A stretch of DNA of 58,848 nt, taken from the NCBI GenBank assembly GCA_043810355.1, contig JBDROB010000047.1:1-58848 (forward strand), read 5' to 3'. This stretch comes from Candidatus Woesearchaeota archaeon (GTDB lineage: Archaea; Nanobdellota; Nanobdellia; Woesearchaeales; JAGVYU01). Shown here piece after piece: positions 673 to 32,698 of this stretch. The notes below the pieces were generated by a model. It saw nothing but the letters and a program-made list of their open reading frames with translations, was not told the origin of the DNA and searched no databases. The position numbers were made by a program, and so were the translations under genes. The stretch's first letter is position 1. Each line of letters starts with the position of its first letter.

Positions 673-716
673 GACCACTGGACATTCTGCTGTGAGATAT
701 ATAAATGAGTTCTGAT
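673..716 (+). promoter_or_regulatory. copy 1 of 44-nt repeat GACCACTGGACATTCTGCTGTGAGATATATAAATGAGTTCTGAT (contains TATA box)
   Basis: Identical over 44 nt to 2782-2825 and over 32 nt to 14095-14126. TATATAAA sits at its 3' part. Confidence 0.8.
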
Positions 717-853
717 TAAAGAAATGATGGGATTGCCCATCACTAAAGAAAAGCCCCTCAACAAGGTATTTCTAAGTGATGGGTGGTCCCACTCATATTT
801 AAACTTTTGGAATTCGGAAAAATTCAGATTAATTCATTTAAATGGAGGTAATA

Positions 854-1348
854 ATGAACCAACTGAACCTTCAATTAGGCAGAGCTATTCCAATAAATGG
901 TACAAGAAAAGAGATTAGAATGATCTTCCTTGACTTATGCACATCTTTGTACCAGAATGGAATTAAAAGGATTCTTTTTATTGACACAATCAATTTTCTT
1001 GATCCTCATAGGATGGATCTAGGAGATCTGAATGAGATAAACTTCTATGATAACATATTCTGTGTCAGGACAGGCCTGCCATATGACCTTTATGCAAGGC
1101 TGAGTACAGCAGAATCTTTCATAAGATATCACAGGATTCAGGTATTGTTAGTCTCATCAATATCTTCTCTTTTCTCTGGTTTTGAAAAAAACGAAACCAA
1201 ACAGATCGTAAAGAATATTCTTGAAAAAATCAATAATCTCACAGAAAAATGCAATCTGTTCACAATCATAGGCAACACAACCTCTGATGAAAAGGATGTG
1301 ATGGAGGCTTATGATGTTGTAGATAGGATTATGTCTAATCAATCTTAA
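854..1348 (+). CDS. RecA/RadB/KaiC-fold protein lacking a recognisable Walker A loop
   Basis: ORF 842..1348. GGAGGT at 844-849 favours ATG 854. ILFIDT and VLLVSSISSLF resemble RecA-superfamily strand motifs, but there is no GxxGxGK[ST]. Confidence 0.5.
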   Translation: MNQLNLQLGRAIPINGTRKEIRMIFLDLCTSLYQNGIKRILFIDTINFLDPHRMDLGDLNEINFYDNIFCVRTGLPYDLYARLSTAESFIRYHRIQVLLVSSISSLFSGFEKNETKQIVKNILEKINNLTEKCNLFTIIGNTTSDEKDVMEAYDVVDRIMSNQS

Positions 1349-1425
1349 CTAAATTGCAGAAAAATTCGATTTTAATAATCAAAATGAAAAGATTTATATA
1401 ATTGTAGATATGCACAAATATACAA

Positions 1426-1689
1426 ATGAATAATTTAGAGTATAAATCAAGATTATACAAGGCTTTAGGTGAACCTATAAGATTAAGGATTATCCAATAC
1501 CTTATGAAAAAGGGACAATGCACTTGTATTTGTGAATTGAGTAAACTTCTAAAAAGGGATCAATCTGTAATCTTTAGGCATATACAGATATTAAAGCAGG
1601 CTGGCATTATCAATACAAATAAAAAAGCCAAATATCTGATGTGTTGTATCAAAGATAAAGATAAGATTAAGAAATTGTTGGAGGATTAA
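1426..1689 (+). CDS. ArsR/SmtB-family winged-helix regulator
   Basis: LGEPIRLRIIQYL...CTCICELSKLL...SVIFRHIQILKQAGII, typical ArsR HTH with metal-site Cys. Confidence 0.85.
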   Translation: MNNLEYKSRLYKALGEPIRLRIIQYLMKKGQCTCICELSKLLKRDQSVIFRHIQILKQAGIINTNKKAKYLMCCIKDKDKIKKLLED

Positions 1690-1690
1690 G

Positions 1691-1813
1691 ATGGCAAAAA
1701 AGAAAAAGGGATTTTTTAGTAGATTAACAGCTAAACTTGATACTAAACTTGAAAAGAGATCTAAGAATAAGAAGTGCTGTTGTTGTCAGGATTCTAAAGA
1801 TAAGAAATGCTAG
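1691..1813 (+). CDS. small basic Cys-rich protein (40 aa, CCCC motif), below the ORF-track cutoff
   Basis: Read by eye: MAKKKKGFFSRLTAKLDTKLEKRSKNKKCCCCQDSKDKKC. It starts 2 nt after the ArsR-like stop, and its stop overlaps the next start (ATGCTAG). Confidence 0.45.
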   Translation: MAKKKKGFFSRLTAKLDTKLEKRSKNKKCCCCQDSKDKKC

Positions 1814-2766
1814 AAGAAATTTTAAATTGGATACTGTACTCAATTATAGGACTAAACCCAACAATAAAATGGGTTGAAACACTTAATTTTTTTATCTATG
1901 ATTCTATCAAGATCATATTGCTTCTGTTTGTGATGATATCTATTATAGGATTCCTAAGAACCTATTTACCTCAAAATAAGATAAAAAGATGGATAAGCGG
2001 CAAAAAGTATGGCACAAGTAATCTTATTGCATCTTTTTTTGGAGCAATAACCCCTTTTTGTTCATGTTCTTCAATTCCGATCTTTCTGGGTTTTTTAGAA
2101 GCAGGAATACCCCTTGGTGTTACATTCTCATTTTTAATCACTTCCCCTTTAGTAAATGAATATTTAGTAGTATTAATGTTCGGATTTTTTGGATGGAAAA
2201 TAACTTTAGCATATGTAATAAGTGGAATATTGATAGGTACAATATCTGGGCTGATTCTTGGAAAGATGAATCTTGAGAAATATTTAGTGAAAGACCTTGT
2301 CTCTACTAATAATACTAAAAAAGAAATAAGATTTAAAGGTCTTAAAAAAAGATTGGATTTTGGGCTGAATGAATCATTGTCTATAACCCGAAAATTATGG
2401 TTATGGATATTAGTAGGTGTTGGGGTTGGGGCAGTTATTCATAATTACGTGCCATCAGAAGTGATTCAATCAATAATAATCAAAGGAGGCATATTTGCAG
2501 TTCCAATTGCAGTAATTTTAGGAGTGCCCTTGTATGGGAGTTGTGCAGCAATTGTTCCTATTGCATTAGTATTATTTGAGAAAGGGGTTCCTATAGGCAC
2601 AGCTTTAGCTTTTATGATGGCTATATCTGGACTAAGTTTTCCAGAAGCAGTCATCTTAAGAAGGGCAATGAAGCTTAAATTAATCATGATATTCTTTTTA
2701 GTTGTTACAATGGCAATAATCCTGACTGGTTATATCTACAATCTTTTGCAAATCTTACTTATTTAA
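1807..2766 (+). CDS. multi-pass permease, UPF0718/ArsP-like
   Basis: Hydrophobic throughout. TPFCSCSSIPIFLGFLEAG and a second SCAAIVPIAL motif are typical of this permease family. It lies downstream of an ArsR-type regulator. Confidence 0.8.
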   Translation: MLEEILNWILYSIIGLNPTIKWVETLNFFIYDSIKIILLLFVMISIIGFLRTYLPQNKIKRWISGKKYGTSNLIASFFGAITPFCSCSSIPIFLGFLEAGIPLGVTFSFLITSPLVNEYLVVLMFGFFGWKITLAYVISGILIGTISGLILGKMNLEKYLVKDLVSTNNTKKEIRFKGLKKRLDFGLNESLSITRKLWLWILVGVGVGAVIHNYVPSEVIQSIIIKGGIFAVPIAVILGVPLYGSCAAIVPIALVLFEKGVPIGTALAFMMAISGLSFPEAVILRRAMKLKLIMIFFLVVTMAIILTGYIYNLLQILLI

Positions 2767-2781
2767 GTAAAATACTTCTTT

Positions 2782-2825
2782 GACCACTGGACATTCTGCT
2801 GTGAGATATATAAATGAGTTCTGAT
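2782..2825 (+). promoter_or_regulatory. copy 2 of the 44-nt TATA-containing repeat
   Basis: 44/44 identity to 673-716. About 30 nt upstream of ORF 2852/2858. Confidence 0.8.
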
Positions 2826-2857
2826 CTGATTTTAATTAACAAATAAATGGGGTGAAA

Positions 2858-3196
2858 ATGGGACACACAATAATGTCTATGCGCTGGGTCATCTATGATG
2901 AGATCCAGAAGCTGAAAAAGCTCTCTGATTCTTTGAGAGAGCCAGAGCATAGTATTGCAAATTCATTGTTATACCATATCTACAACAATATATCTGGAAT
3001 AACGCATGCTAATCCTTTTCCAAAGGATCTGCTAAACAGCATGATCTACACAATCTTGATAGAAGAAAAAAAGAAAAAAGGCATTGATGTCGACAACCTG
3101 ACTTTATTGTTGTTCTCTATCATTGTAAGGCATAAGGCTGGGAAGATTGAATTAGAAAAAAGTGATTTATATAAAAGGCAAATTTCAATCAAGTAA
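2858..3196 (+). CDS. hypothetical protein
   Basis: ORF 2852..3196. GGGGTGA box before ATG 2858. No recognisable motif. Confidence 0.5.
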   Translation: MGHTIMSMRWVIYDEIQKLKKLSDSLREPEHSIANSLLYHIYNNISGITHANPFPKDLLNSMIYTILIEEKKKKGIDVDNLTLLLFSIIVRHKAGKIELEKSDLYKRQISIK

Positions 3197-3202
3197 AAGA
3201 AT

Positions 3203-3532
3203 ATGGTTAAGTTGGAAATGTTTATAAAACAGAATATATTCTCAAACAGTATGGAATTTGACCATTATAAGGATCCAAAAGAAGCAGAATTAGTCTGGGA
3301 AGCATATTCCAGAGATTTGAAGAGATATGGATTGATAGTAGAAGCAGTAAGTGTTGCAGAAAGATGTGACACAGCAGATTCTTTAGATATTAGATTGGAT
3401 ATGATGGTCACTGCAGAAGCGAGCAGAAATATCAGTCGAAAAAGATATACATCTTCTTCATCTCCTATAGATATAGATGCATTTGGATCTTGGTCACTTG
3501 TTGTAAGGGCTTATGAGATGGATTTCCCTTAA
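3203..3532 (+). CDS. hypothetical protein
   Basis: ORF track. Tightly follows the previous ORF. No recognisable motif. Confidence 0.5.
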   Translation: MVKLEMFIKQNIFSNSMEFDHYKDPKEAELVWEAYSRDLKRYGLIVEAVSVAERCDTADSLDIRLDMMVTAEASRNISRKRYTSSSSPIDIDAFGSWSLVVRAYEMDFP

Positions 3533-3948
3533 GAAGGCAGCAGCCATTTTCTTGCAACTGCTTTCCAATCTCGTTTTGTATATTTCCCAGATAATATTTC
3601 AACTAATACCTTAGTTGAATCATCATACTCTCTTGGTAATTTTATTACTGACCCATGTTTATTCAATGCTATTGCCTGCACAACTTTCTCCTCTAGATCA
3701 AATGGTTCTCCGACAACAATTCCTTGAACTCCATATCTGTTCCCATCAACAATTTGCTGAGCCCTTTTGCAATAACCTATCTTAGAATAATTTATTACCA
3801 TCACTTTCAAATCTTTTTGTTTGACTATGCCAACTAATACTGTTTTATCAGGCACATAGATGGAATCTAAAGTATAGACGCTTAATCCCATTGGATCATG
3901 CTTGTCTTTTTCCCTTGTTCTGATGTGGTATGAGTCCATTCTTGGCAT
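3529..3948 (-). CDS. hypothetical protein
   Basis: ORF track, non-repetitive composition. Convergent 4-nt overlap with 3203..3532. Confidence 0.5.
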   Translation of the reverse strand: MPRMDSYHIRTREKDKHDPMGLSVYTLDSIYVPDKTVLVGIVKQKDLKVMVINYSKIGYCKRAQQIVDGNRYGVQGIVVGEPFDLEEKVVQAIALNKHGSVIKLPREYDDSTKVLVEILSGKYTKRDWKAVARKWLLPS

Positions 3949-3967
3949 AGATATACTAAATCATATA

Positions 3968-4207
3968 TTAAAATTTCTGTGATTTGAGATATTTTGAAAT
4001 CAATTCAACTTTTTTTTTATTAATCATTTCATAGAATTTTCTTGTATAATTTAATGGTAATATAGGGATATGTAATCTTTTCCATTCAATCTTTTCAGTC
4101 TTGTCAAACATATCTAATCTTCTATCTTCTTCAGGTGTTATTTGTCTTGTCATTTTAGTTTTCCTCTTGAGTAGTTTATTTAACCACTTCTTAATGACAA
4201 TAAACAT
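3968..4207 (-). CDS. hypothetical small basic protein
   Basis: ORF track only. Confidence 0.35.
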   Translation of the reverse strand: MFIVIKKWLNKLLKRKTKMTRQITPEEDRRLDMFDKTEKIEWKRLHIPILPLNYTRKFYEMINKKKVELISKYLKSQKF

Positions 4208-4288
4208 ATGAGGTATATAAGTCTTTGTTGTAATCCTAATAGCAACAAAATAGTAATGTTTAAATATAAACTAAACTCTCTTTATTGT

Positions 4289-5008
4289 ATGAATACAGAA
4301 GAACTGCAAGAATTTGGATTATCAAATACAGAAGCAAAAGTATATTTAGCTTTGCTTGAGCTTGGAAAAAGCAAAGCAGGGGAGATAACTAAAAAATCTG
4401 CTGTAAATAGGACTAATGTTTATGATGCTCTTGAAAGACTTATTGAAAAAGGTCTTGTTTCTTATATTTCAGAGAATAATAAAAAAGTCTTTGAAGCTGT
4501 AAATCCTCAAAGACTTCAAGAAATTCTAAAAGATAAGCAAGATAAACTAGGAAAAACAATAGAAGAACTTAAATCCAGATACCAAAAAAGCCAGAAGCAA
4601 GAAGATGCTTTTGTCTTTAGAGGCAAGAATGGAATAAAATCTATTTTTGAAGATATTTTAAACGAAAAGAAAGAGCTTTTTTGCTATGGTGCAGAAAGCA
4701 GGTTTAAAGAGATGTTTCCTTTTTATCAAAAGCATTGGAATAAAGAAAGAGCAAGATTAAAGATAAAGGTTAAAATGATTTACAGCGAAAGAGTTAAACA
4801 AGAAAAGAGAAAAGAAAATCTTAAACTTCTTGAAATGAAGTTTTTGCCTGAAACTTATGATTTTCCTTCTATGGTTATGATTTATGGCAATAGAGTTGTT
4901 ACGATTGTTTGGCTTGAAGAGCCATTTGGATTTATGATTAAGAGCGAAGAAGCGGTAAAGAGTAATATGAATTTCTTTGAGTTATTGTGGAAGATAGCCA
5001 AAAATTAA
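4289..5008 (+). CDS. TrmB-family transcriptional regulator
   Basis: LSNTEAKVYLALLELGKSKAGEITKKSAVNRTNVYDALERLIEKGLV is the TrmB wHTH. ATG 4289 fits the family N-terminus better than the track start 4208. Confidence 0.8.
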   Translation: MNTEELQEFGLSNTEAKVYLALLELGKSKAGEITKKSAVNRTNVYDALERLIEKGLVSYISENNKKVFEAVNPQRLQEILKDKQDKLGKTIEELKSRYQKSQKQEDAFVFRGKNGIKSIFEDILNEKKELFCYGAESRFKEMFPFYQKHWNKERARLKIKVKMIYSERVKQEKRKENLKLLEMKFLPETYDFPSMVMIYGNRVVTIVWLEEPFGFMIKSEEAVKSNMNFFELLWKIAKN

Positions 5009-5406
5009 AGAATCAAAACAGCTTCTTCTGGCTTTAAAATCCTGATTTTATTGTATTCTTTCAGTTTCAAAAGGTGCTTGTCCTGGCTTACGATAAAATC
5101 TGCTTCTCCATAAACCGCAGCTTCAACAAACTTATCATCTTCTGGGTCGTCTTTTACTGCTTGTATCGCTACAATAGGATCTACTATCATTGAGTTTTCT
5201 ATGATAAGATTTTTCCATTCTTCAATTAATTCTTCATCCATAGAAATCTTGAAGCTTCTAAGAGTTTCTACCAATTCTTCAATAAGTTGAGGAGAACTTA
5301 CTAGCTGAAACTTTCCTCTTTTCCATTTGTCTATGATTTGAGAACAAAAGTTTCCTTCCCAGAATATTCCTGAGATGAATACATTCGTGTCTAAAACTAT
5401 TCTCAT
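5005..5406 (-). CDS. vapC: PIN-domain toxin (VapC-like)
   Basis: MRIVLDTNVFISG N-terminus plus acidic residues. 4-nt overlap with the upstream antitoxin. Confidence 0.85.
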   Translation of the reverse strand: MRIVLDTNVFISGIFWEGNFCSQIIDKWKRGKFQLVSSPQLIEELVETLRSFKISMDEELIEEWKNLIIENSMIVDPIVAIQAVKDDPEDDKFVEAAVYGEADFIVSQDKHLLKLKEYNKIRILKPEEAVLIL

Positions 5407-5663
5407 TTTTTCCTTGCTTCGCTTATAGCTTCAGATACATCTGCTTCTTTTAATCCTCTCTTTTTTGCGAATTCTCTTGTTTTTTTGAGCAGTTTATCTA
5501 CTCCGCTAAAAGAAGGCATTTCAAGTTTCTTTAAGACAATAGTGTTATCTTCTCCGATAACTACAAATTTCTCTCCTTCATGTATTCTCAATCTGTCTCT
5601 TAGACTTTGAGGTATTACTATTTGCCCTCTTGAACTCATACTTGTTATTTCAATATTTTCCAT
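5403..5663 (-). CDS. vapB: AbrB/SpoVT-type antitoxin
   Basis: SSRGQIVIPQSLRDRLRIHEGEKFVV swapped-hairpin motif. Overlaps the PIN gene. Confidence 0.85.
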   Translation of the reverse strand: MENIEITSMSSRGQIVIPQSLRDRLRIHEGEKFVVIGEDNTIVLKKLEMPSFSGVDKLLKKTREFAKKRGLKEADVSEAISEARKK

Positions 5664-7198
5664 TTTTATCCTCCTGTAAGTTTATATTATTGGTAAGATT
5701 ATCTTATTTATAAGCTTTTCGGTTTGTTTTCGTTCGTCTGCCCCCAAATTCGTTTAGAAAATTTTTGCTTAGTAGTAGGGGTGGTGGGCGGGGAGAGTGG
5801 TGGGAGGTAAAACCTTGAGCGATTAGCGAAAGGCTATCTGTTGCATCAGCAACTCACCTGCACCCCCTTTAAATTAAAAGTTTGATTGTGTATAATCCTT
5901 GTTAAACTCTCCGAAGGATTGATTTTTAGTGCAACGATGCCGAAGGCAAAAAATCAAAGTAAAATTTCCGTTTCCAATAAATATCTGCGAAGCAGACTAA
6001 ATGTCCGAAGGACAGAGGCGAGAACCCCCACCTTGTGCTTCGCACAGAATTACTCTCTTGACAAATTGAAAATAAATCCTTTTTCTCCATCACTTACAAC
6101 TCTAAGCCTTTCTCCAGTTTCAATAGGGTATCTATGTTCGTGTTCCCTTCCCCCATAAAATGGCTGACTCAACGAATCTTTTGCATTAAGATACAAGATT
6201 CCTTTCTTTCTTGAAACTTCCATGTCGTGATGTTCTCCTAAATCTGTATAAGCTACAACAGCCCTTTTATTAGGTGTCCAATTATCAAGATGTGTGCAGT
6301 AAAATTGAAGATATGGCGTTACAAGAACATATCCTTCAGGATGACTTTTATCAAATTCTTCCAGACCATCTGCATCAACGCCATCTACCCCATAATAATG
6401 AGTAATTGAAAATGCTTCGCCTGTAAAATCACCAGTTCCATTTAAGTCATGTGTTGATGCAATTAACCCTTTATCTTGTAATTCAGGCATCTGAAACTTT
6501 TCAGAATCAGATAATCGGGTTAATTTTCTTGCCTGAAGAAGATTATACTGCCAATCTCCAGAATTACCGTAAGTTGCAAATTCCATTATTATTGGATGCT
6601 TTAACTCTCTTTCAGCAAAAAGAGCAATACTTGCTAAATTTTCAACTTCTTCATTTGACCATCTTGAATAATTTCTGGACATAACAACGGGACTTGATGT
6701 ATCAGGGAATACAGTTCCATCTTCAGCATATTCTCTGAGAAATGCTTCAATATATCTTTCACTATCATAAGCAGATTCTCTTATTATTTTTACAATATCT
6801 CTTGGTGCTGGAAATTTAGAATAAACAACTCCCGTATGCTCTTTTTTATCAACCATTGCCTGAACAATAACAGGAATTCTTTCATCAAGTACAGCACCAA
6901 CTTCACCAGCATATTTATTTGCCTTTTCAGTTTTTGCACTCTTTCTCACTTGATGAATTGTTCTGACTAATTTCTCTCTTGGAACATCAAGGTATGTTTC
7001 AAAAATTCCATCAAAAGAGTGTTCTCCATTATCTTCTAAAACTGATGAAGACCTAACCGCATATCTCTCAGAACCCAAAGAATCTGCGACTCCAATTATA
7101 TCTTGATAACTTCCTGCTAAGTTTAGTGAAGATGGAACTACAAAGAAATTAGGAACTATAACTTTCCCGCGATAAACGACTTCTTCGTTTAAATTCTC

Positions 7199-7782
7199 TA
7201 GCTAGAAATCCCCACCACTTGTGGTAGGGGATGAATAGCGTAATGCTTATAGAATACTGATTCTAGACATTACGGATTGGTAGAATGATGAGCCTCACAA
7301 AGGAGGTGAGGCCCAATGAGATACTCAGACCACAAATACAAACATGGTATCGGTTGGACGATGTGCCATATACAATGGGTCACAAAGTATCGATATAAGG
7401 TATTTAGTGACTTGAAGCTAAAAAACCTTTTGGAAATTCTGCTTATGGAGTCTAGCAGAAGACACAATTTTAACCTGTTGGAGATGGAGGTTCAGCCTGA
7501 TCATGTGCACGCTTTAGTGGCATTAAGGCCAAGTATGTCTCCATCTTTTGCTTTACAGGCAATGAAGGGCTACACTAGCAGATTGCTTTTCCTTATGGAG
7601 GAGGAAACTCTTTCCAGATGGTATTTTGATAATGGAAAAGAAAGAAGCCTATGGGGAGATGGTAAATTCATTGGGTCTGTCGGACATATAACTCTAGAAA
7701 AAGCAAAAGAGTACTTAGAGAAACAAGAGGCTTATCATGCCAAAGAATCCCCACCCTTTAGGGTTGGGGAGCATTAATTTTT
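7199..7782 (+). mobile_element. IS200-type insertion sequence (tnpA only); ends approximate
   Basis: Subterminal hairpins CCCCACCACTTGTGGTAGGGG (7210-7230) and CCCCACCCTTTAGGGTTGGGG (7749-7769), each preceded by ATCCCCACC. Splits a host reading frame. Confidence 0.8.
7316..7777 (+). CDS. tnpA: IS200/IS605-family Y1 (HUH) transposase TnpA
   Basis: HIQWVTKYRYKVF and QPDHVHALV (HUH) motifs, about 150 aa. Strong AGGAGGTGA box upstream. Confidence 0.9.
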   Translation: MRYSDHKYKHGIGWTMCHIQWVTKYRYKVFSDLKLKNLLEILLMESSRRHNFNLLEMEVQPDHVHALVALRPSMSPSFALQAMKGYTSRLLFLMEEETLSRWYFDNGKERSLWGDGKFIGSVGHITLEKAKEYLEKQEAYHAKESPPFRVGEH

Positions 7783-8009
7783 CTTCAAGAGATTTTAATG
7801 TTAAGATACCTCTTGCTTTTCCACCAACTAATTCAATTGGTGCTTCTCTTTCTGTATCTAAAACTAATTTGCTCATAATAATATTGAAAAATTAAACATT
7901 TTATAAATGTTCCTACTTTGGAGTTAAAAGTGGATGGTAGGGGGTTCTCGCCTCTTTTGTTTCTTTTTCTAAAAGAAAGGAAACGGAAATTTTATTGAGC
8001 ATAAGCCCT

Positions 8010-8705
8010 GTTAAGTGACCCGAACGGAATGAAATGAAGTGAGAGCGCAGCGTGGTCGACCGAAGGGAGAAGTTGAATTTCTGGACTCATTTTTCTAACT
8101 TTTTTATCGCTTCTTCGTACCACTGCCGAGCAATTTGTTTTGCTTTTTCAGAAGTAATTCTATTAAACATCCAATCAAACTTTTCTTTGACTTTTTCTTT
8201 TCCTACTTCAGAAACATGTTTGGTTAAAAATGTGGGAACATTATTTTCAAAAAAGCTGATGCTGTCTGCGTCTTTTAGTAAATTTTGGTCGTCATTTCCG
8301 CCCTCTTCATGTTTTGAGATTAGCATTTTGACTCTATCTATTAATTTCTGCTCGGCGCCCTCTTTTTTCAAAAAATCTGCCATGATTTCTGCGCCTCTTT
8401 CTTCATGAGGACGAAAGAATTCAGGATCAGCATAGCTGTGCGAATGTTTTTTGTCTTTGACATCTTGTTTTCTGAAAGCTCTTTCAATGTCATGAGCAAT
8501 AGCAGAAATTAATAGTGCTTCATCAGCATCAGCTTTTAACTGTTTAATCCAATAAACTGTTCTTTCAAAATGTTTGATTTGAGATGTTTTGCCAAGTTTT
8601 GTAAATGAATCTATTACAAATTGCTCGGCTTTTTTGTATAAATTTTCAGTCATATTATTAGAAGAAGCGATAAAGTATATAAAAGTTGTCCAGAAATTCA
8701 ATTTC
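8010..8705. other. module 2 of the inverted-repeat-bracketed gene array
   Basis: GTTAAGT box at 8010-8016. GC box GCGCAGCGTGGTCGAC at 8045-8060. Arms 8069-8086 GAAGTTGAATTTCTGGAC / 8688-8705 GTCCAGAAATTCAATTTC (18 bp, one G.T). Cargo is the HD-domain gene (minus strand). Confidence 0.8.
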
Positions 8706-8707
8706 AC
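8087..8707 (-). CDS. HD-domain phosphohydrolase-like protein
   Basis: ISAIAHDIERAF (HD) and further His/Asp. ATG at 8653 (MTENLYKK) is a more likely start, because the first 18 codons lie in the repeat arm. Confidence 0.7.
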   Translation of the reverse strand: MKLNFWTTFIYFIASSNNMTENLYKKAEQFVIDSFTKLGKTSQIKHFERTVYWIKQLKADADEALLISAIAHDIERAFRKQDVKDKKHSHSYADPEFFRPHEERGAEIMADFLKKEGAEQKLIDRVKMLISKHEEGGNDDQNLLKDADSISFFENNVPTFLTKHVSEVGKEKVKEKFDWMFNRITSEKAKQIARQWYEEAIKKLEK

Positions 8708-8716
8708 TTAAGTGCT

Positions 8717-9724
8717 GTTAAATGCCCCGACGACCGAAGGGAGGAGAATGCAATGTGGTCGACCGACTGAAAGGAGGGAGAAGTTGAAAAAATGGCGTAT
8801 CAGGGGCGAAGCCCAATCCACTAAAAAATTCAAGGGTCGGCTCAATATTATTTCTAATTTAGAAGTAGTAACATTATCAAAAGATTTATAAGTATATGTT
8901 TAATTATTAATGAAATATGAGTGAAGATAATCAGATTATTTTGTATGAAGGAAGTCCATTAGAAAGAATTGCATCTTCTGATATAGTTTTAAGAACTGAT
9001 AAACCATTAATGGAACAGAAAAGGCTATTTTTGGCAAGTGATGTTGTTGTGGGAGAATATGGTGTAACTGGTTTTGTAGTAGTTGATAATAAACCTGAAA
9101 AAAGGTGGATAAGTTACACTGAAGGAGATAAAACTGGTGTAAGCTGGGATCCAGAGTACCACTCTCTTGAATTTACTATGTATGGACTGGATGAACCATT
9201 AAGGAAGGCACATTTTGCTAATACAGATGAAGGTTTTAAAATGATTAGGTATTTTATTTTACCTTCAAATGTAAGTCAATTCTTTAGAACTGATAAATTC
9301 TTGGGATATCCCATGATTGATAAGTGTTGTAGAGAAGGTACGCTCCCAGAAGAATTTGATGAAGTTGAAGTAAATCCAGTATATGCATTCCATGGAGAAG
9401 AAAGAGAAATTATAGATAGAATAATCGAAAGGATTTCTCCAAATCTACAACAAATTGGTGAATCCAGATTTTCTTGGGAAGATTTTGGACATCAAGTATA
9501 TTTTTCATTTCATCCTTGGCAAACATATAAACCAGTTCTTGAAGCTGGAGAAGAATCAGTTGTTAGAGCTGTGAGAAATTTTGATCAATTTTTATCAAGA
9601 TTTGATGAAAGAAAAAAGCTTCAAAGAAGGGATTTAGAAATCCAAGGAGCACAAGAGTACAAAGGAGTTCTTCCACCATCTGAATAATTGAGTCGACCCT
9701 TTCTATATTTAGCCATTTTTTCAA
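8717..9724. other. module 3 of the inverted-repeat-bracketed gene array
   Basis: GTTAAAT box at 8717-8723. GC box TGCAATGTGGTCGACC at 8749-8764. Outer arms 8784-8796 TTGAAAAAATGGC / 9712-9724 GCCATTTTTTCAA (13/13). Inner arms 8832-8846 AAGGGTCGGCTCAAT / 9687-9701 ATTGAGTCGACCCTT. Cargo is ORF 8917..9687 (plus strand). Confidence 0.8.
8917..9687 (+). CDS. hypothetical protein (module 3 cargo)
   Basis: ORF track, balanced composition, no motif recognised. Confidence 0.55.
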   Translation: MSEDNQIILYEGSPLERIASSDIVLRTDKPLMEQKRLFLASDVVVGEYGVTGFVVVDNKPEKRWISYTEGDKTGVSWDPEYHSLEFTMYGLDEPLRKAHFANTDEGFKMIRYFILPSNVSQFFRTDKFLGYPMIDKCCREGTLPEEFDEVEVNPVYAFHGEEREIIDRIIERISPNLQQIGESRFSWEDFGHQVYFSFHPWQTYKPVLEAGEESVVRAVRNFDQFLSRFDERKKLQRRDLEIQGAQEYKGVLPPSE

Positions 9725-9810
9725 TTGCATTTAATTATGTTATATTCCCTCTTTAGAGGCTGAGCTCAAAGCGAAGAGTTTTTACGTAGTAAAAATTGAA
9801 TATAATCGCT

Positions 9811-10841
9811 GTTAAATACCCCGAGCCGAACGAGCGAAGCATAGTGAGGTGAGAGTGCAACGTGGTCGAGTACCGCAGTTCACAAAGTGAACGAGGAACG
9901 GAGAAGTAAAATTCTTACTTTATCAATCCTGCGAAGCAGACTATATTTAGGGGGTTTCCGTTTATCAAGGGCGTAAGCCAATTTAAGTGAATGGGTTAAG
10001 GGGAAAATCTTTTCTGAGTTAGATTTGAGTAAAGTTTATATTACTAATTATATTCCCAAAAATAATGACTAACAATGTAAATGAAGCTGCATCAAGGATG
10101 GAGCAATTGATAAACTCATTTGAGATTGTTCCAATAAAGCCTTTAGCAGGTAAGGCAATAAAAGTTCCTTCTGATGATCCATGTATATTAGGTAAAGGTG
10201 ATTCTTCTGTGATATTCCGGTTAGGCGAATTTACTGACGGGGATTATTTATGTGGCAAACTTTATGGTGCCAGGTCTCCAAGATATTCCTCTGGCATTTG
10301 GGAAATGGGGTTTTTATATATCTCAGGTTATATTATTTGTGGTTATGATAAGGGCTTAGATAATAATATTGATGTTTTAAGTAGGGTCGGTTTACAAGTG
10401 CCCCCTCACCATCAATTTAAGGCTGAAACCCATGGTGGAAAATTTACCCCCCATTATATAATCGTAGAAGATTTTACTCAAGGAGGCAGATATAATGTTG
10501 TTGATGCTGTTGATTTTGATTTCAATTCAATTCCAAATGGTGTTTCATTAGAAAAGGCATATCGGAAGACATTGTCAAGAACTTTAAGACGTTTGAGGTC
10601 AAAAAAGTATGTATTGCATTGTCATGGCCATGTTAGTGAAGCAGAGGGAGGGATTGACAATGCAATTGAGCATTTGTTTTTTGTTCAGCATAGGCAAAAT
10701 GGAGAAGGAAGATTAATTGTAGGGGATCTTGATCATATTGAAGCAAGGTATGTTCCATTTAGTGAAAGATTGCCAAAATGGATTCAGAATTTTCCCATTA
10801 TCTCTAATTTAGGAAACCCCCGTTCTAAGTAAGAATTTTAT
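9811..10841. other. module 4 of the inverted-repeat-bracketed gene array
   Basis: GTTAAAT box at 9811-9817. GC box GTGCAACGTGGTCGAG at 9855-9870. Outer arms 9906-9918 GTAAAATTCTTAC / 10829-10841 GTAAGAATTTTAT. Inner arms 9950-9959 GGGGGTTTCC / 10812-10821 GGAAACCCCC. Cargo is ORF 10065..10832 (plus strand). Confidence 0.8.
10065..10832 (+). CDS. hypothetical protein (module 4 cargo)
   Basis: ORF track, no confident motif. Confidence 0.55.
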   Translation: MTNNVNEAASRMEQLINSFEIVPIKPLAGKAIKVPSDDPCILGKGDSSVIFRLGEFTDGDYLCGKLYGARSPRYSSGIWEMGFLYISGYIICGYDKGLDNNIDVLSRVGLQVPPHHQFKAETHGGKFTPHYIIVEDFTQGGRYNVVDAVDFDFNSIPNGVSLEKAYRKTLSRTLRRLRSKKYVLHCHGHVSEAEGGIDNAIEHLFFVQHRQNGEGRLIVGDLDHIEARYVPFSERLPKWIQNFPIISNLGNPRSK

Positions 10842-10855
10842 TGTATTTAATCCTT

Positions 10856-11943
10856 GTTAAGTTCTTTTCCCATACGAAGTGTGGGAAAACTGCGTCCGCA
10901 GAGTTGAGAATTTGTCTTTTTTCAAGCACGGAGTGCCATCAAAATAATTCATCCAGGGGCTTTGGTCGTTATTACATTATACACTAAATAGTGGTAACAA
11001 ATAGAAACATTTATAAAGAAAATGTATTCAATCTTTATTATGTTGGAGCAAATTACGTATCAGAATAATCAAGAATTACAGGATGCACAATTAACTACAA
11101 TAGTTAATGTTGCAAGTGAAATTTACCAATCAAATGGAAATAAACCTATTAGAATTCTTGATTTAGCAACAGGTCCAAATGGATTTAATCCAGTTATTGT
11201 AAGAAATTTAATTGATAGAGGCATCGATTATGAATTGGTTTTATCAGACATTTCTCCAACACATTTCAGAATTGGATATGAAAATCTTGAACAAGAATTA
11301 TCTCCTGAAGAACTTCAAAAAGTAAAATGCGTACTAGCAGATTCTAGAGATTTTAAAAGAAATCTTACTGAAGTTCCATTATGGGGTGAAGGTAGAAAAC
11401 CGCTTGAAGAAGTTCTTGAAGATCCAAGATACCAATTTTTACAAACAGGTTATCAAGATGGTCAAAGAACAGTAGATTTTACTGATGGTGCTTTTGATTT
11501 GGTTATTGGAAATATTCCTTATGGAAGTATAAATACAGGAGATTATTCGGATGCAATAGATGAGTCTGCAAGAGTTTTGAAACCTAGTGGATATCATATT
11601 GTTGATGAAATGCATGTTGAAAATGTGCAGAGTTATGGATTGCGAGCTTGGTGTACCTTAAAAGAAATGTTTGGAAAACCATTAAGAGAAGCTTATCCAA
11701 CTGCAAGAAGAAGCTTATCGGCAATTTCTAGAGCAAGAGCAAAAGATCTTCAAGAAGTCTCATCTAAATTGGATTCAGTATTAACACCTGTTGCTGTTTA
11801 TTCAACAACTTACGTATATGATACAGAAGAACGAATTCCTGAACAAACTCTCCAAAAAGGAGATTTAGTAAAAAGAGCTGTATTTGTACATCAGAAAGTT
11901 GATTAAGCCCAAAGCCCCCTTCTACTAAAAGACAAATTCTCAA
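10856..11943. other. module 5 of the inverted-repeat-bracketed gene array
   Basis: GTTAAGT box at 10856-10862. Outer arms 10904-10920 TTGAGAATTTGTCTTTT / 11927-11943 AAAAGACAAATTCTCAA (17/17). Inner arms 10954-10965 CAGGGGCTTTGG / 11909-11920 CCAAAGCCCCCT. Cargo is the methyltransferase gene (plus strand). Confidence 0.8.
11022..11906 (+). CDS. class I SAM-dependent methyltransferase with NPPY-like motif (possible N6-amino methyltransferase)
   Basis: ILDLATGPNG (motif I) and DLVIGNIPYG (motif IV-like). Confidence 0.65.
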   Translation: MYSIFIMLEQITYQNNQELQDAQLTTIVNVASEIYQSNGNKPIRILDLATGPNGFNPVIVRNLIDRGIDYELVLSDISPTHFRIGYENLEQELSPEELQKVKCVLADSRDFKRNLTEVPLWGEGRKPLEEVLEDPRYQFLQTGYQDGQRTVDFTDGAFDLVIGNIPYGSINTGDYSDAIDESARVLKPSGYHIVDEMHVENVQSYGLRAWCTLKEMFGKPLREAYPTARRSLSAISRARAKDLQEVSSKLDSVLTPVAVYSTTYVYDTEERIPEQTLQKGDLVKRAVFVHQKVD

Positions 11944-11947
11944 TTGA

Positions 11948-12018
11948 ACTTAACAACATTTAAACGAATCCATTGGAATTCGGGGACTACAGGGGCTGTA
12001 GGGTTAATGTTGTTAGGA
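11948..12018. repeat. closed attC-like hairpin with core-like ends
   Basis: ACTTAACAACATT (11948-11960) pairs with AATGTTGTTAGG (12006-12017). The ends resemble RYYYAAC / GTTRRRY. Inner hairpins are CGAATCCA/TGGAATTCG and CTACAG/CTGTAG. Confidence 0.65.
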
Positions 12019-12063
12019 TCAAATCTGAAAAAGTGGTGTAACTTATGAGTGAACTTGGATAAC

Positions 12064-12118
12064 AAAAACCGCACTAATCCCCTACTTGAAGGTAGGGGTA
12101 TTTTATCATGCGGTTTTT
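12064..12118. repeat. closed hairpin element
   Basis: AAAAACCGCA / TGCGGTTTTT (10 bp) enclosing CCCCTAC/GTAGGGG. Confidence 0.7.
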
Positions 12119-12122
12119 GGGA

Positions 12123-12192
12123 TTGAAAATCTCGCACTAAAGTGCATGGTATTCCTTATCCCAGACAAAATCTCGCTGTGCGAGATTTTCAA
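12123..12192. repeat. closed hairpin element with TTGAAAA...TTTTCAA termini
   Basis: TTGAAAATCTCGCAC (12123-12137) / GTGCGAGATTTTCAA (12178-12192), 15/15. Inner GCAC-TAAA-GTGC. Confidence 0.75.
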
Positions 12193-12367
12193 TAATTAAA
12201 TAATGTAAAAAAGGGCAAATGATTTCCGGATAAGTTGGTAATCTTGTGGTATGTATTTAAATGAAATGAAAGATTTTCAATGAAATCAAAGAGGCTTCGA
12301 TTCTGCTGAAAAAATGCATGATTTTTTACCATAATACATTAAAAGGTCTTCAGGCTATAAAATATTT

Positions 12368-13246
12368 ATGGATATCTTAGAGGTAGTGAAAAAGGAGATG
12401 CTTCGTCGGAGATTGAGCAGAAGGACGATCTCTACATATCTTTTCTATATCAGGAAGTTCTTGCTTTTCTGTCCAAAACCTCCAAAAGAGTTCTCTAAAA
12501 AGGATATAAAAGATTTCCTTGAGCAGAAAGGCTATCTTGAAAAGTCTGGGAGCACAACTAATGTTGCCCTCATGTCCCTTCGTTTCATGATGGAAGAATG
12601 CCTTAGGAAAAGCATGAGGTTGAATATTAGGTATTCAAAGACTCCTAAATCTCTGACTGCTTGCTTGACAAAGGAAGAGGTTAGAATGCTGATTGATTCT
12701 TTCAAGAATGAAAAGCATAAACTGCTAATTTCACTCATGTATGGAGCTGGATTAAGAGTGAGTGAGGCTGTCAAGCTGAAGAAGGAGGATATTGATCTTT
12801 GTTCAGGATATGGATGGGTTAGAAGAGGAAAGGGCAACAAGGATAGGCCCTTTATTATTCCTATAAGTTTGAAACAAGGTATAATTAAAAGAATGGAGAT
12901 TGAAGGAACCTATATCTTTCCAGGAAGGAGTCAACATCATTTATCTGTTAGATCAGTGCAACAGATACTGAAAAGGGCAGGAAGAAAAGTGTTGAAAAAG
13001 CATGTCAACCCTCACATGCTAAGGCATTCATTTGCAACGCACTTGATTGAAGATGGAACAGATTTGATGGCTATTCAGTCACTTCTTGGCCATAATGAAG
13101 CTAGGACAACAATAGAATATCTTCATGTTGTTAAGCCAAAGATGCTGAATGTTAAGAGTCCGCTTGATTGTTTGGAGGATAAAAATGATGTCTCAAAACC
13201 ATGCAAAAATAGAAAGATTTATACAACAAAAATCTTTGATTTTTGA
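12368..13246 (+). CDS. tyrosine site-specific recombinase (Xer/IntI-like)
   Basis: N-terminal SAM-like domain (LSRRTISTYLFYIRKFLLF). Catalytic signatures AGLRVSEA, HMLRHSFATHL, LLGH, TTIEYLHV. C-terminal VKSPLD. Confidence 0.9.
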   Translation: MDILEVVKKEMLRRRLSRRTISTYLFYIRKFLLFCPKPPKEFSKKDIKDFLEQKGYLEKSGSTTNVALMSLRFMMEECLRKSMRLNIRYSKTPKSLTACLTKEEVRMLIDSFKNEKHKLLISLMYGAGLRVSEAVKLKKEDIDLCSGYGWVRRGKGNKDRPFIIPISLKQGIIKRMEIEGTYIFPGRSQHHLSVRSVQQILKRAGRKVLKKHVNPHMLRHSFATHLIEDGTDLMAIQSLLGHNEARTTIEYLHVVKPKMLNVKSPLDCLEDKNDVSKPCKNRKIYTTKIFDF

Positions 13247-13250
13247 GCAT

Positions 13251-13273
13251 AACATTCCTAAAATAGGAATGTT
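13251..13273 (+). terminator. stem-loop after the recombinase gene
   Basis: AACATTCCTA-AAA-TAGGAATGTT, 10-bp perfect stem 5 nt after the stop codon. Confidence 0.5.
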
Positions 13274-13312
13274 TATATATAATTAGATTATACAAACTCA
13301 GGGTGATAAAAA

Positions 13313-13528
13313 ATGGATGTATTTGAAGCTATTCCAAAGCATTGGGGAAATTCCATAGGAGTGACTATCCCAAGGGAAATTGTCAAAAAGAATGGGATTG
13401 TTCCCAAGAAGAAGGTAATGTTATTAGTCTTAAGAGAAGATAATACCCTGGAAAAGATGTTTGGTAGCCTTCCGAGAAAGAAATCAACACAAAAAATAAT
13501 GGATGAGATTGATGAAGGATATGACTGA
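13313..13528 (+). CDS. vapB: AbrB/MazE-type antitoxin
   Basis: WGNSIGVTIPREIVKKNGI motif. Overlaps the PIN gene (ATGACTGA). Confidence 0.8.
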   Translation: MDVFEAIPKHWGNSIGVTIPREIVKKNGIVPKKKVMLLVLREDNTLEKMFGSLPRKKSTQKIMDEIDEGYD

Positions 13529-13889
13529 AGTATTTTTTGCAGACACTTATGCATTGTTTGAGATAATTTTTAAGAATGATGATTATAAAAGATTTCTTAA
13601 ATTAATCTTTGTCACTACTAAATCTAATTTAGTTGAATTCTACTATCATTTATTAAAGGATTATGGAAAAAATGTTGCAGATGCACATCTTAAGGCTTTT
13701 TCTAGTATAATAATTCCAGTTACATATGAAAGCATTCAAGAAGGTATGAAGTTTAAACTTAAATTTAAGAAAGAAAAGCTGAGCTATGTAGATTGCATAG
13801 GATATGCTCTAGCTTTGGAATATGGCATCAAATTTCTCACTGGAGACCAGAAGTTTGAGTTTAAGGATAATGTGGAATTTGTTAAATGA
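13521..13889 (+). CDS. vapC: PIN-domain toxin (VapC-like)
   Basis: MTEVFFADTYALFEI N-terminus, C-terminal LTGDQKF. ATG 13521 overlaps the antitoxin stop. Confidence 0.75.
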   Translation: MTEVFFADTYALFEIIFKNDDYKRFLKLIFVTTKSNLVEFYYHLLKDYGKNVADAHLKAFSSIIIPVTYESIQEGMKFKLKFKKEKLSYVDCIGYALALEYGIKFLTGDQKFEFKDNVEFVK

Positions 13890-13923
13890 ATCAAGCATCT
13901 CCTGCTTTTATTCTGATATGCTG

Positions 13924-13993
13924 TCAAAGTCGGCAGGGACCGCCAGTCAATATGCTGGTGGCATGTTCGCTTCGCTCACCCTGCCGACTTTGA
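13924..13993. repeat. closed GC-rich hairpin element
   Basis: TCAAAGTCGGCAGGG (13924-13938) / CCCTGCCGACTTTGA (13979-13993), 15/15. The loop contains a GCTTCGC mini-hairpin. Confidence 0.75.
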
Positions 13994-14094
13994 GCATGCT
14001 CAGAAATATACCGCCTTCCAAAAATGGATTGTGGACTATTGCCCACTGGTCATGCAGGCCAGGAGTATATTTCTGACATATCAATACCTGTTCA

Positions 14095-14126
14095 ACCACT
14101 GGACATTCTGCTGTGAGATATATAAA
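14095..14126 (+). promoter_or_regulatory. copy 3 (32 nt) of the TATA-containing repeat, upstream of PolB
   Basis: ACCACTGGACATTCTGCTGTGAGATATATAAA is identical to the other two copies. ATG of polB lies 40 nt downstream. Confidence 0.8.
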
Positions 14127-16386: not shown

Positions 16387-17063
16387 TAAAACTCAGGTTT
16401 AATCTCTTCAAGGGCTTTTGCTCCCCTGTGAATTCTGGTCTTTACAGTATTTAATGGAACATCCAACATATCGCTGATATCCTTATAAGATACATGATAG
16501 ATTCTGTTCATGATTGTAGGAGTTAATAATCTTTCATCAATGCCTTCAACAATGTCATGTTTCCCATTAAATATTGCTTTATGGACCAATTTACGTGCTG
16601 CTGGATCATGGGCATATTGTTCTGGAGTCACATCAGGAAGGACTCTGGTTTCATAGGATGGTGGGCTGAAATTTAGGCCTATCTCATTATCTTTTGGATA
16701 TCTTTCTGGGTCTTCAAAAATCTTTCTCTGATTGCCAGATTTTTTATAATGCTTAAACAGAATATGTTCTGCAACAGTAAAAAGCCAGGTTTTTGCAAAA
16801 CCTTTGTCAGTGTATCCGCCTGTAGAATAGCTTTTCCAAGCTTGTAAAAAAACCTCTTGTTTTAGGTCTTCAGCTAAGTCAGGTTTTCCTGTCATAGAGA
16901 ATAAGTAATTACGTATGCCACGTTCGTATTGATCATAGAATTCTTTTGTAAATCTTTCCTGTAGCATTTCAATTGACAAGGCTGTGAGCGGAAAAGGCCT
17001 GATATTGTCAGGTCTAAGAGAATCAACACTACCTTTAACAACCTCTGCTAAATTACTTCCCAT
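16383..17063 (-). CDS. sigma-70 family (ECF-type) sigma-factor-like protein
   Basis: Region 2-like AEDLKQEVFLQAWKSY...WLFTVAEHILFKHYKK. Region 4-like YKDISDMLDVPLNTVKTRIHRGAKALEE. Confidence 0.7.
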   Translation of the reverse strand: MGSNLAEVVKGSVDSLRPDNIRPFPLTALSIEMLQERFTKEFYDQYERGIRNYLFSMTGKPDLAEDLKQEVFLQAWKSYSTGGYTDKGFAKTWLFTVAEHILFKHYKKSGNQRKIFEDPERYPKDNEIGLNFSPPSYETRVLPDVTPEQYAHDPAARKLVHKAIFNGKHDIVEGIDERLLTPTIMNRIYHVSYKDISDMLDVPLNTVKTRIHRGAKALEEIKPEFY

Positions 17064-32056: not shown

Positions 32057-32698
32057 ATGTTAAAAAACATTAAATTAAATGAAGAAATTTGTGAATTTAT
32101 TGGAGCTTTCATTGGTGATGGTTATATGGGAAATTATGGAAAACATAAAAGTCAATATTTAATAGGAATCGCAGGTGATAAAAAACTTGATTTAGATTAT
32201 TTCAAGAATTATTTAAAACCTTTGATTAAAAGAAATTTTCCTTTTACAAATCCAAAAATATATTTTAAAAAGAATGAAAACTCAATTATGTTAACAATTT
32301 ATTCTAAGGAATTATATCATATTTTTTTAGAGTTAGGATTTAACACTGGGAAAAAATCAAGAGTTGTTAAAATCCCCCATCAAATTCTGAAAAATGACTT
32401 ATTCATGAAATCTGCAATTAGAGGAATTTTTGATACTGATGGATGTTTGTATTTTGATAAAAGAAAACCTTATTTAAAACCATATCCAAGAATTACCTTA
32501 CAAATTGCAAGCCAGAAACTATTAAAACAATTAGAGAAGTTTTTATCAAATCATTTTAATTTATACCTAAATTATAATAATAGAAATGGATATAGAAACT
32601 ATATAGAGATTTATGGACATGACCAATTAGAAAAGTTTTTAAAATTGATAAGTTTTTCTAATAAAAGGCACTTAATCAAATTACAAATGCCCCTGTAG
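32057..32698 (+). CDS. LAGLIDADG-family homing endonuclease-like protein
   Basis: Two dodecapeptide-like motifs, FIGAFIGDGY and IRGIFDTDGC. The stop codon lies inside the tRNA-like 5' end. Confidence 0.85.
   Translation: MLKNIKLNEEICEFIGAFIGDGYMGNYGKHKSQYLIGIAGDKKLDLDYFKNYLKPLIKRNFPFTNPKIYFKKNENSIMLTIYSKELYHIFLELGFNTGKKSRVVKIPHQILKNDLFMKSAIRGIFDTDGCLYFDKRKPYLKPYPRITLQIASQKLLKQLEKFLSNHFNLYLNYNNRNGYRNYIEIYGHDQLEKFLKLISFSNKRHLIKLQMPL

Follow-up and report, generated by a model that had tools for sequence, protein, structure and literature searches.

A Repeated Promoter with a Conserved Regulator Box Probably Keeps the Split PolB2 Mutasome Genes of a Woesearchaeota Archaeon under Common Control

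Introduction

When the same sequence stands in front of three separate genes and also brackets accessory DNA, is it a promoter that these genes share or the trace of integrated elements? This question is raised by a stretch of 58,848 nucleotides (nt) from a Candidatus Woesearchaeota archaeon (assembly GCA_043810355.1, contig JBDROB010000047.1, positions 1 to 58,848; hereafter, the window), in which a 32-nt sequence, ACCACTGGACATTCTGCTGTGAGATATATAAA, occurs three times. As argued below, the repeat is likely to be one archaeal promoter with a box for a regulator, which has been copied to each of the separated genes of a split operon, that of the PolB2 mutasome.

The genes iRadA, PPB2 and PolB2 have been described as one operon that encodes the PolB2 mutasome (Makarova et al. 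2014, PMC4104785; Timinskas, Timinskas & Venclovas 2025, PMC11791011). The operon is induced by DNA damage in Sulfolobales, and its neighbours are enriched for orc1/cdc6 in archaea, for lexA in bacteria and for SRAP genes (PMC4104785, PMC11791011). The published PPB2 is a small helical protein with an N-terminal 'MGRT' arm (PMC11791011). In Sulfolobus, Dpo2 is an active translesion extender that has no exonuclease, and no other polymerase there is induced by damage (PMC8764526, PMC7390963); Orc1-2, a protein that binds the element ANTTTC, is required for this induction (Sun et al. 2018, PMC6061795).

The gene set is thus already known. What is new is a conserved cis element in Woesearchaeota and a split operon with replicated promoters. 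To our knowledge, the regulation of DNA-damage tolerance in archaea has been described only for Sulfolobales, and we know of nothing of the kind for DPANN archaea.

A Repeat with the Layout of an Archaeal Promoter

All three copies are exact and lie on the + strand, at 674-705, 2783-2814 and 14095-14126 (copies 1, 2 and 3). No fourth copy is found in the window (AT-rich, ~35% G+C) when up to three mismatches are allowed, and the 32-mer appeared in 0 of 100 dinucleotide shuffles. Copies 1 and 2 are identical over 44/44 nt (673-716 vs 2782-2825), and in copy 3 identity is lost directly past the TATA box TATATAAA. The predicted promoters and the genes behind them are as follows.

674..705 (+), predicted promoter copy 1: box CACTGGACA at 676-684, TATA box TATATAAA at 698-705
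854..1348 (+), iRadA, 164 amino acids (aa): Rad51/RadA fold without Walker A or Walker B, behind copy 1
2783..2814 (+), predicted promoter copy 2: box at 2785-2793, TATA box at 2807-2814
2858..3196 (+), PPB2 (arCOG07300-like), 112 aa: all-helical, with an N-terminal MGHT arm, behind copy 2
14095..14126 (+), predicted promoter copy 3: box at 14097-14105, TATA box at 14119-14126
14167..16386 (+), PolB2-type family B DNA polymerase, 739 aa, behind copy 3

The layout of the copies is that expected of an archaeal promoter. An 8-nt TATA box, TATATAAA, directly follows GTGAGA (692-697 in copy 1), a purine-rich segment resembling the TFB recognition element (BRE), which ends the 13-nt spacer between box and TATA box. 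The distance from the end of the TATA box to the start codon is 148 nt for iRadA (ATG 854), and the 43 nt to PPB2 (ATG 2858) and 40 nt to PolB2 (ATG 14167) are those of a promoter close to its gene. Copy 2 is followed by a Shine-Dalgarno-like GGGGTGA and then by ATG 2858. A structured RNA or hairpin can be set aside as the basis of the repeat: the 44-mer has a minimum free energy of -1.7 kcal/mol (z = +2.0), which makes it less stable than its shuffles. Scans of the window for tRNAs and Rfam families gave no match.

Most of this layout had been noticed in an earlier inspection of the letters of this DNA (the sequence-only reading), which reported the 44-nt identity, the recurrence of its first 32 nt in the same orientation, the end of identity at the TATA box of copy 3 and the position of every copy upstream of a gene start. 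All four points hold. The same reading took the first gene for a RecA-fold protein lacking a P-loop and the third for a family B polymerase lacking exonuclease motifs, with which the protein comparisons that follow agree.

The Genes Behind the Copies

Their sequences, predicted folds and gene order indicate that the three genes are iRadA, PPB2 and PolB2, the subunits of the PolB2 mutasome. Profiles of the 161-164-aa iRadA family match exclusively DMC1, RAD51, RAD51C and RadA, although weakly (E 0.006-0.03). An AlphaFold2 (AF2) model of iRadA, built from two sequences only, has a predicted local distance difference test score (pLDDT) of 66 and a predicted template modelling score (pTM) of 0.68, and Foldseek places it with RAD51, RadA, RecA and KaiC at E 1e-6 and probability 1.0. 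The ATPase site is inactivated, since neither GK[ST] nor the acidic residue of Walker B is present in the 11 aligned members.

The 112-aa PPB2 family, of which 83 members were found, has a nearly invariant MGHT N-terminus. The AF2 model of PPB2 is a helical bundle (pLDDT 82); no structural match at E < 3 was found in the PDB, and a profile search likewise found nothing. The protein matches the published PPB2 in its size, its predicted helices, its N-terminal arm (MGHT vs MGRT) and its gene position. A role as a winged-helix autoregulator was considered and rejected on the strength of the model, a helical bundle with no counterpart in the PDB. Seven nt past PPB2 starts an open reading frame (ORF) of 109 aa (3203..3532, +), which is possibly co-transcribed with it. 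This ORF has no homolog in the related loci, and the idea that it represents a second PPB2 was discarded (hhalign probability 0.2%).

In the polymerase, motif A (DFVSLYPNIM) is intact, while motif C reads HGIIDS, with a single Asp, and aligns to the YGDTDS of a solved PolB. The only Pfam match is PF00136, the exonuclease domain PF03104 being not matched. Among NCBIfam models, two short archaeal PolB families score best (E 1e-93 and 1e-91, both below their cut-offs), followed at 1e-37 by replicative PolB. An exact-protein look-up with the window PolB returned no match. Its motifs and its operon partners together argue for a place in the PolB2 clade.

The Intact Operon and Its Promoter in Distant Relatives

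Homologs of the polymerase with 55-59% identity are present in other Woesearchaeota and in Pacearchaeota. There the PolB gene is directly preceded by genes for proteins of 111-119 aa and 161-166 aa, an HNH gene usually comes first and an SRAP gene usually adjoins. The window's iRadA and PPB2 have their homologs in this pair of upstream genes (E 6e-33 and 8e-38). The three genes behind the copies are therefore genes that normally form one operon. Searching metagenomes with the 112-aa family yielded ten further loci of the same order, two of which have a gene for an RNase_H_2-type exonuclease between the 161-aa and 112-aa genes. Altogether, the operon HNH-iRadA-(exonuclease)-PPB2-PolB2 is present, whole or in part, in 15/15 related loci (L004-L017, L020); many of their contigs are short, hence the partial operons. 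At least 12 of the more distant Woesearchaeota loci have the genes in a single operon.

The exonuclease deserves separate mention. It is a stand-alone RNase_H_2/DnaQ-like 3'-5' enzyme (L005 13552-14382, L007 449-1225, L012 5216-5992) whose gene lies either inside the PolB2 operon or apart from it; in L005 it stands away from the operon, behind a double box and a TATA box of its own. The enzyme may provide PolB2, which has no exonuclease domain, with proofreading or end-processing. The window encodes no homolog of it.

The relatives also reveal which part of the repeat is conserved. In every operon with an available 5' flank, CACTGGACA stands exactly 13 nt before an 8-nt TATA box, which reads TATTTAAA, CTTATAAA or TATATAAA. 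The window and the related loci make up 206 kb of non-redundant sequence with well over a hundred genes, and in these 24 exact boxes occur where 0.9 would be expected (at most 4 in 100 Markov shuffles). The boxes are without exception oriented with the gene strand (24/24), and the 13-nt spacing is kept in 19/19 promoters, while the spacer sequences differ between lineages, usually ending in a purine-rich GTGA(R)(R). In some genomes the box is doubled, the additional one standing 7, 16 or 21 nt further upstream. Next to a divergent SRAP gene, the box is placed in the short intergenic region common to both sides, and in L017 the TATA box is only ~20 nt from the HNH start, as in leaderless genes. 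The genes that carry the box are those for HNH, iRadA, PPB2, PolB2 and the operon-linked exonuclease, all of them members of the operon in at least some genomes, plus one corA gene in the closest relative of the window (see below). In a literature search, no publication turned up that reports this motif for archaea. A mobile or viral origin of the module was also considered and rejected, as IMG/VR holds neither a PPB2 relative nor the box-TATA pattern.

Copies at Orthologous Sites in a Sister Genome

Within the protein collection, a single genome is closely related to the window: the metagenome-assembled GCA_043805595.1 (here, the sister genome), at about 87% nucleotide identity. Its 164-aa protein is 88% identical to that of the window, and the coding sequences of the two are 77-95% identical at the nucleotide level. 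With 0-2 mismatches, the element stands there before the orthologs of iRadA (164 aa) and PPB2 (102 aa) and before corA. It also stands before PolB, on a separate contig, and a variant with a different TATA segment precedes the HNH gene. Among 185,579 GTDB species representatives, the 20-mer CCACTGGACATTCTGCTGTG is found only in this genome.

In the sister genome, the corA copy lies at L001 8003-8034 and its gene at 8139-9095. The gene encodes a CorA-type metal transporter, with no evident link to DNA repair. This arrangement is known from the sister genome only, the window contig beginning too late to show it.

An alignment of the eight copies from both genomes contains 19 consecutive invariant columns, CCACTGGACATTCTGCTGT. 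Flanking sequence is common to orthologous copies, whereas in paralogous copies the likeness is limited to the core; with the repeat included, the intergenic DNA around copies 1 and 2 is 74-79% identical between window and sister. Beyond the core, copies 2 and 3 have some extra upstream similarity in common, and the 11-12 nt that follow the TATA box are shared by copy 1, copy 2 and the copy before corA. The orthologous sites and the invariant core indicate that the promoter duplications are older than the split between the two species and that the core has been held constant since.

In both genomes the three genes have the same orientation and are separated by 1.5 kb and 11 kb, and so do not form one operon.

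A Split Operon under One Control

These observations can be brought together in a simple scheme. The promoter would have three parts: a TATA box, the purine-rich segment that resembles a BRE, and the box CACTGGACA, which is always 13 nt upstream of the TATA box (roughly -49 to -41 from the expected start). In most Woesearchaeota this promoter is present once, at the head of the HNH-iRadA-PPB2-PolB2 operon and usually beside an SRAP gene. In the window lineage, the operon was probably split first by an arsR-arsP block and later by an accessory island of 11 kb. Each of the separated genes, iRadA, PPB2 and PolB2, bears its own copy of the promoter, which would leave the subunits under the same control. 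A single sequence-specific factor would bind the box and keep the genes co-regulated.

This factor most likely responds to DNA damage, because damage induces the PolB2 operons of Sulfolobales and those found elsewhere are linked to orc1/cdc6 or lexA. We lean slightly towards an activator, because the site is just upstream of the BRE, where archaeal activators usually bind. The alternative would be a repressor that blocks the access of TFB, since the TATA box and BRE are already near consensus.

An Orc1/Cdc6 paralog would be the first candidate for this regulator, because CACTGGACA resembles the core of the origin recognition box (ORB), a linkage between orc1/cdc6 and PolB2 has been reported and Orc1-2 of Sulfolobus sets a precedent. 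The archaeal ORB consensus is CTTCCAGTGGAAACGAAAGGGGT (Pelve et al., as tabulated in PMC4153887), besides which variants with CCACTGGAAAC exist. The agreement with the ORB core CCA(C/G)TGGAAA extends to 8/9 positions; it is short, was found by post hoc comparison with known motifs and serves as a lead only. It is tempting to speculate that CACTGGACA is derived from an ORB and that, in DPANN archaea, an Orc1/Cdc6 paralog switches on the PolB2 mutasome after damage, a proposal that is attractive but, in our judgement, rather doubtful. If it held, control of the damage response by Orc proteins, which has to date been demonstrated in Sulfolobales alone, would be old and broadly distributed; the cis elements would represent different fragments of the ORB, and the split locus with its three identical promoters would offer a natural set of reporters.

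Another regulatory gene lies next to PolB2. Convergent with it is a gene for a bacterial-type homolog of extracytoplasmic function (ECF) sigma-70 factors (16383-17063, - strand, 226 aa), which has regions 2 and 4 and matches TIGR02937 above the cut-off. The gene occupies the same place in the sister genome (L021 4801-5484) and is conserved only there. In L004 a different protein containing sigma region 4 adjoins the operon. The ECF-sigma-like protein was considered as the linked regulator and rejected, being conserved only in the sister and not homologous to the L004 neighbour.

Several points weigh against a shared, damage-responsive promoter. Promoter activity is deduced from the sequence alone. 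No orc1/cdc6 gene was found in the window or within 10 kb on either side of L004-L006, L017, L020 and L021, and in the loci examined no regulator gene consistently adjoins the operon. The Sulfolobales element from which damage induction is extrapolated, ANTTTC, is a different one. A regulon that serves purely DNA repair leaves the corA copy of the sister genome unexplained. An identity of 32-44 nt is more than the box needs in other lineages, and part of it may stem from duplication history or gene conversion and not from function.

The last of these points concerns iRadA. Its leader (706-853, 148 nt; L001 9849-10000) is conserved between window and sister in two short stretches: CCCCTCAACAAG at 753-764 and, nearer to iRadA than copy 1 is, TATTTAAACTTTTGGAA at 803-819, with a second TATA-like site at 803-811. 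The leader may thus hold a second, proximal promoter. Because copy 1 is 148 nt from the start and a conserved TATA-like site is closer, copy 1 may be neither the sole nor the main promoter of iRadA. A separate idea, that the leader is the remnant of an HNH gene, was dropped when the local alignment scores fell within the range of shuffles.

The DNA Between the Copies

Two blocks of inserted DNA keep the three genes apart.

1426..2766 (+), arsR-arsP block, separating iRadA from PPB2
1426-1689 (+), arsR-family regulator
1691-1813 (+), Cys-rich peptide, 40 aa
1807-2766 (+), ArsP-type permease
3529..13889, accessory island, ~11 kb, separating PPB2 from PolB2; also contains a TrmB-like regulator (4208-5008) and a PPDK-like fragment
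5005-5663 and 13313-13889, MazE/PIN pairs
7316-7777, IS200-type Y1 transposase
~8010-8075, 8715-8790 and 9810-9875, attC-like repeats between ORFs
12368-13246, tyrosine recombinase, whose right end is 849 nt left of copy 3
13921..14085 (+), repeated hairpin element of ~165 nt, carrying CACTGGTCA

The arsR/Cys-rich/ArsP block (L001 10573-11914) is 94-95% identical in nucleotides between the two genomes, with the neighbouring genes at ~87%. This suggests either a stronger constraint on the block or a more recent exchange.

The attC-like elements of the region 7900-12300 have GTTAAAT or GTTAAGT cores plus a shared segment, GAGAGYGCARYGTGGTCGA, and lie upstream of the tyrosine recombinase. The best NCBIfam models for the recombinase are one for archaeal XerA/integron integrase and one for integron integrase, with both matches below the cut-off. 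Together, array and recombinase may constitute an archaeal cassette array of the integron kind. The sister assembly has a contig break at the place of the accessory DNA in the window.

Very stable long hairpins are found in the intergenic regions at 1-140, 370-450 and 13900-14010 (z -10.7, -5.9 and -7.7). They look like miniature inverted-repeat or palindrome-associated transposable elements (MITE/PATE-like) and were possibly mobilised by the IS200-type Y1 transposase at 7316-7777. Compared with the sister genome, the window has an insertion at 345-545, and the ~165-nt hairpin repeat next to copy 3 has two further copies in the sister (L001 4227-4386 and 5035-5198). This hairpin repeat accounts for the 96.7% identity of the PIN-PolB2 spacer between the two genomes, in which genes are 77-88% identical. 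It also bears on a half-box to which the sequence-only reading had drawn attention: CACTGGTCA is indeed there, at 14044-14052, but it is probably no independent operator, because it sits within an element that recurs elsewhere.

Unrelated to these blocks, a free-standing LAGLIDADG-type ORF of 213 aa (32057-32698) adjoins the gene for ribosomal protein L15e.

Other Explanations of the Repeat

The explanation that comes closest to a shared, regulated promoter dispenses with the regulator. The copies would then be duplicates of a strong constitutive promoter, and CACTGGACA would be a lineage-specific extension of the core promoter, for example a contact for a TFB variant. The near-consensus TATA and BRE-like parts may indeed need no activator, no regulator gene is linked, and identity over 32-44 nt points to copying more than to selection on each base. 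A general promoter element should, however, be widespread, and in 206 kb the box is confined to genes of the PolB2 operon and corA. The variable number and arrangement of boxes, with offsets of 7, 16 and 21 nt, is typical of the sites of a factor, and PolB2 operons are damage-regulated wherever they have been tested. A constitutive promoter is therefore unlikely, although it is the most serious rival to a regulated one.

The second explanation is that the copies are the cores of attL, hybrid and attR sites, left by two tandem islands that were integrated by the tyrosine recombinase at 12368-13246. Its appeal is that the direct repeats bracket accessory DNA, that a recombinase of the XerA/integron-integrase kind ends 849 nt left of copy 3, and that the DNA from copy 2 to copy 3 includes toxin-antitoxin (TA) pairs, attC-like repeats and a transposase of the IS200 type. 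This much of the idea stands: gene annotation confirms the recombinase, the TA pairs, the insertion sequence and the cassette-type repeats, and the inserted genes bear out the accessory, mobile nature of the DNA between the copies.

What decides against att sites is the comparison with relatives that the sequence-only reading had itself proposed, namely a search for an empty site. Where iRadA, PPB2 and PolB2 abut or overlap (L004, L005, L006, L017, L020), the junctions carry neither box nor core, so there is no attB at these 'empty sites'. Instead, intact operons have a single copy at their head, and the box-TATA unit is conserved in lineages without islands. The sister genome has extra copies of the core before HNH and corA, and the orthologous copies have stayed in place while their flanks diverged. 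Within the window, the segment between copies 1 and 2 holds a core gene of the operon, iRadA, and not just cargo, and a TA pair and the repeated hairpin element separate the recombinase from copy 3. It is thus very hard to believe that the copies are att sites.

Hardly more credible is the idea that the boxes are ORBs that mark an origin of replication or a site on the chromatin bound by Orc, with no part in transcription. It can draw on the 8/9 match to the ORB core and on the enrichment of orc1/cdc6 genes near PolB2 in other archaea, but the likeness ends with the core (the G-rich 3' part AGGGGT is absent). The boxes are single and gene-oriented, each at 13 nt from its TATA box, with 2-11 kb between them; they are not arranged around an AT-rich unwinding element beside orc1/cdc6 (as far as a composition profile of 2-kb resolution, which is too coarse locally, can tell), and the window has no orc1/cdc6 gene.

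The sequence-only reading had left the choice between att cores and a shared promoter with operator, which would define a small regulon linked to damage. Its second reading, that of att cores, can be abandoned. The promoter reading was right in substance, as the box-N13-TATA unit heads the intact operon in distant relatives, and it can now be sharpened: the three downstream genes appear to be the three subunits of the PolB2 translesion mutasome.

Significance

The pattern CACTGGACA-N13-TATA is a cis element for the PolB2 mutasome supported by comparative evidence, and can serve both as bait for the regulator and as a search pattern for its regulon. The split operon indicates that the mutasome genes are kept under one control despite the mobile DNA between them. 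Such shared control of separated genes would lend independent genetic support to the view that iRadA, PPB2 and PolB2 act as one complex. For annotation, the locus advises caution: long identical direct repeats around islands should not be called att sites until relatives have been checked. Nothing here contradicts the current understanding, and the element offers a direct handle on a regulator of the damage response in DPANN archaea.

Comparison with Known Systems

The locus appears to have its three components in common with the published PolB2 mutasome: a PolB that lacks an exonuclease domain and has only one Asp in motif C, a Rad51/RadA homolog that is inactive, and a small protein, predicted to be helical, that begins with MG(R/H)T. 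Related Woesearchaeota also share the order iRadA-PPB2-PolB2 and the frequent SRAP neighbour. In contrast to the published operons, the window genes are 1.5 and 11 kb apart, each with its own promoter copy. Furthermore, the operons of Woesearchaeota start with HNH, and some add the stand-alone RNase_H_2-type exonuclease. The cited papers mention no promoters and define no cis-regulatory element.

The nearest parallel in regulation is the ANTTTC element of Sulfolobales, a short element in the promoter regions of dpo2 and other damage genes through which an Orc1/Cdc6 paralog activates them. The same type of control is proposed here, and both elements resemble parts of the ORB. CACTGGACA is nevertheless not ANTTTC; it is fixed 13 nt upstream of the TATA box, and orc1/cdc6 was not found nearby. 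Whereas the Sulfolobales regulon is large, the regulon here, as read from sequence, looks confined to genes of the operon.

The ORB itself has a core, CCA(C/G)TGGA(A)A, that the box matches at 8/9 positions. Unlike ORBs, the box has no G-rich extension and is not found in inverted pairs on the two sides of an unwinding element; its place is bound to that of a TATA box and the start of a gene.

Finally, in bacterial SOS cassettes, LexA boxes precede imuA-imuB-dnaE2, umuDC and polB2 operons with lexA, and place an error-tolerant polymerase and its inactive RecA-like partner under one operator. The archaeal locus differs in its TATA/BRE machinery, in having no LexA and in a box that is not a palindromic LexA site. 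The principle would be the same, with a repeated operator holding separated units in one regulon.

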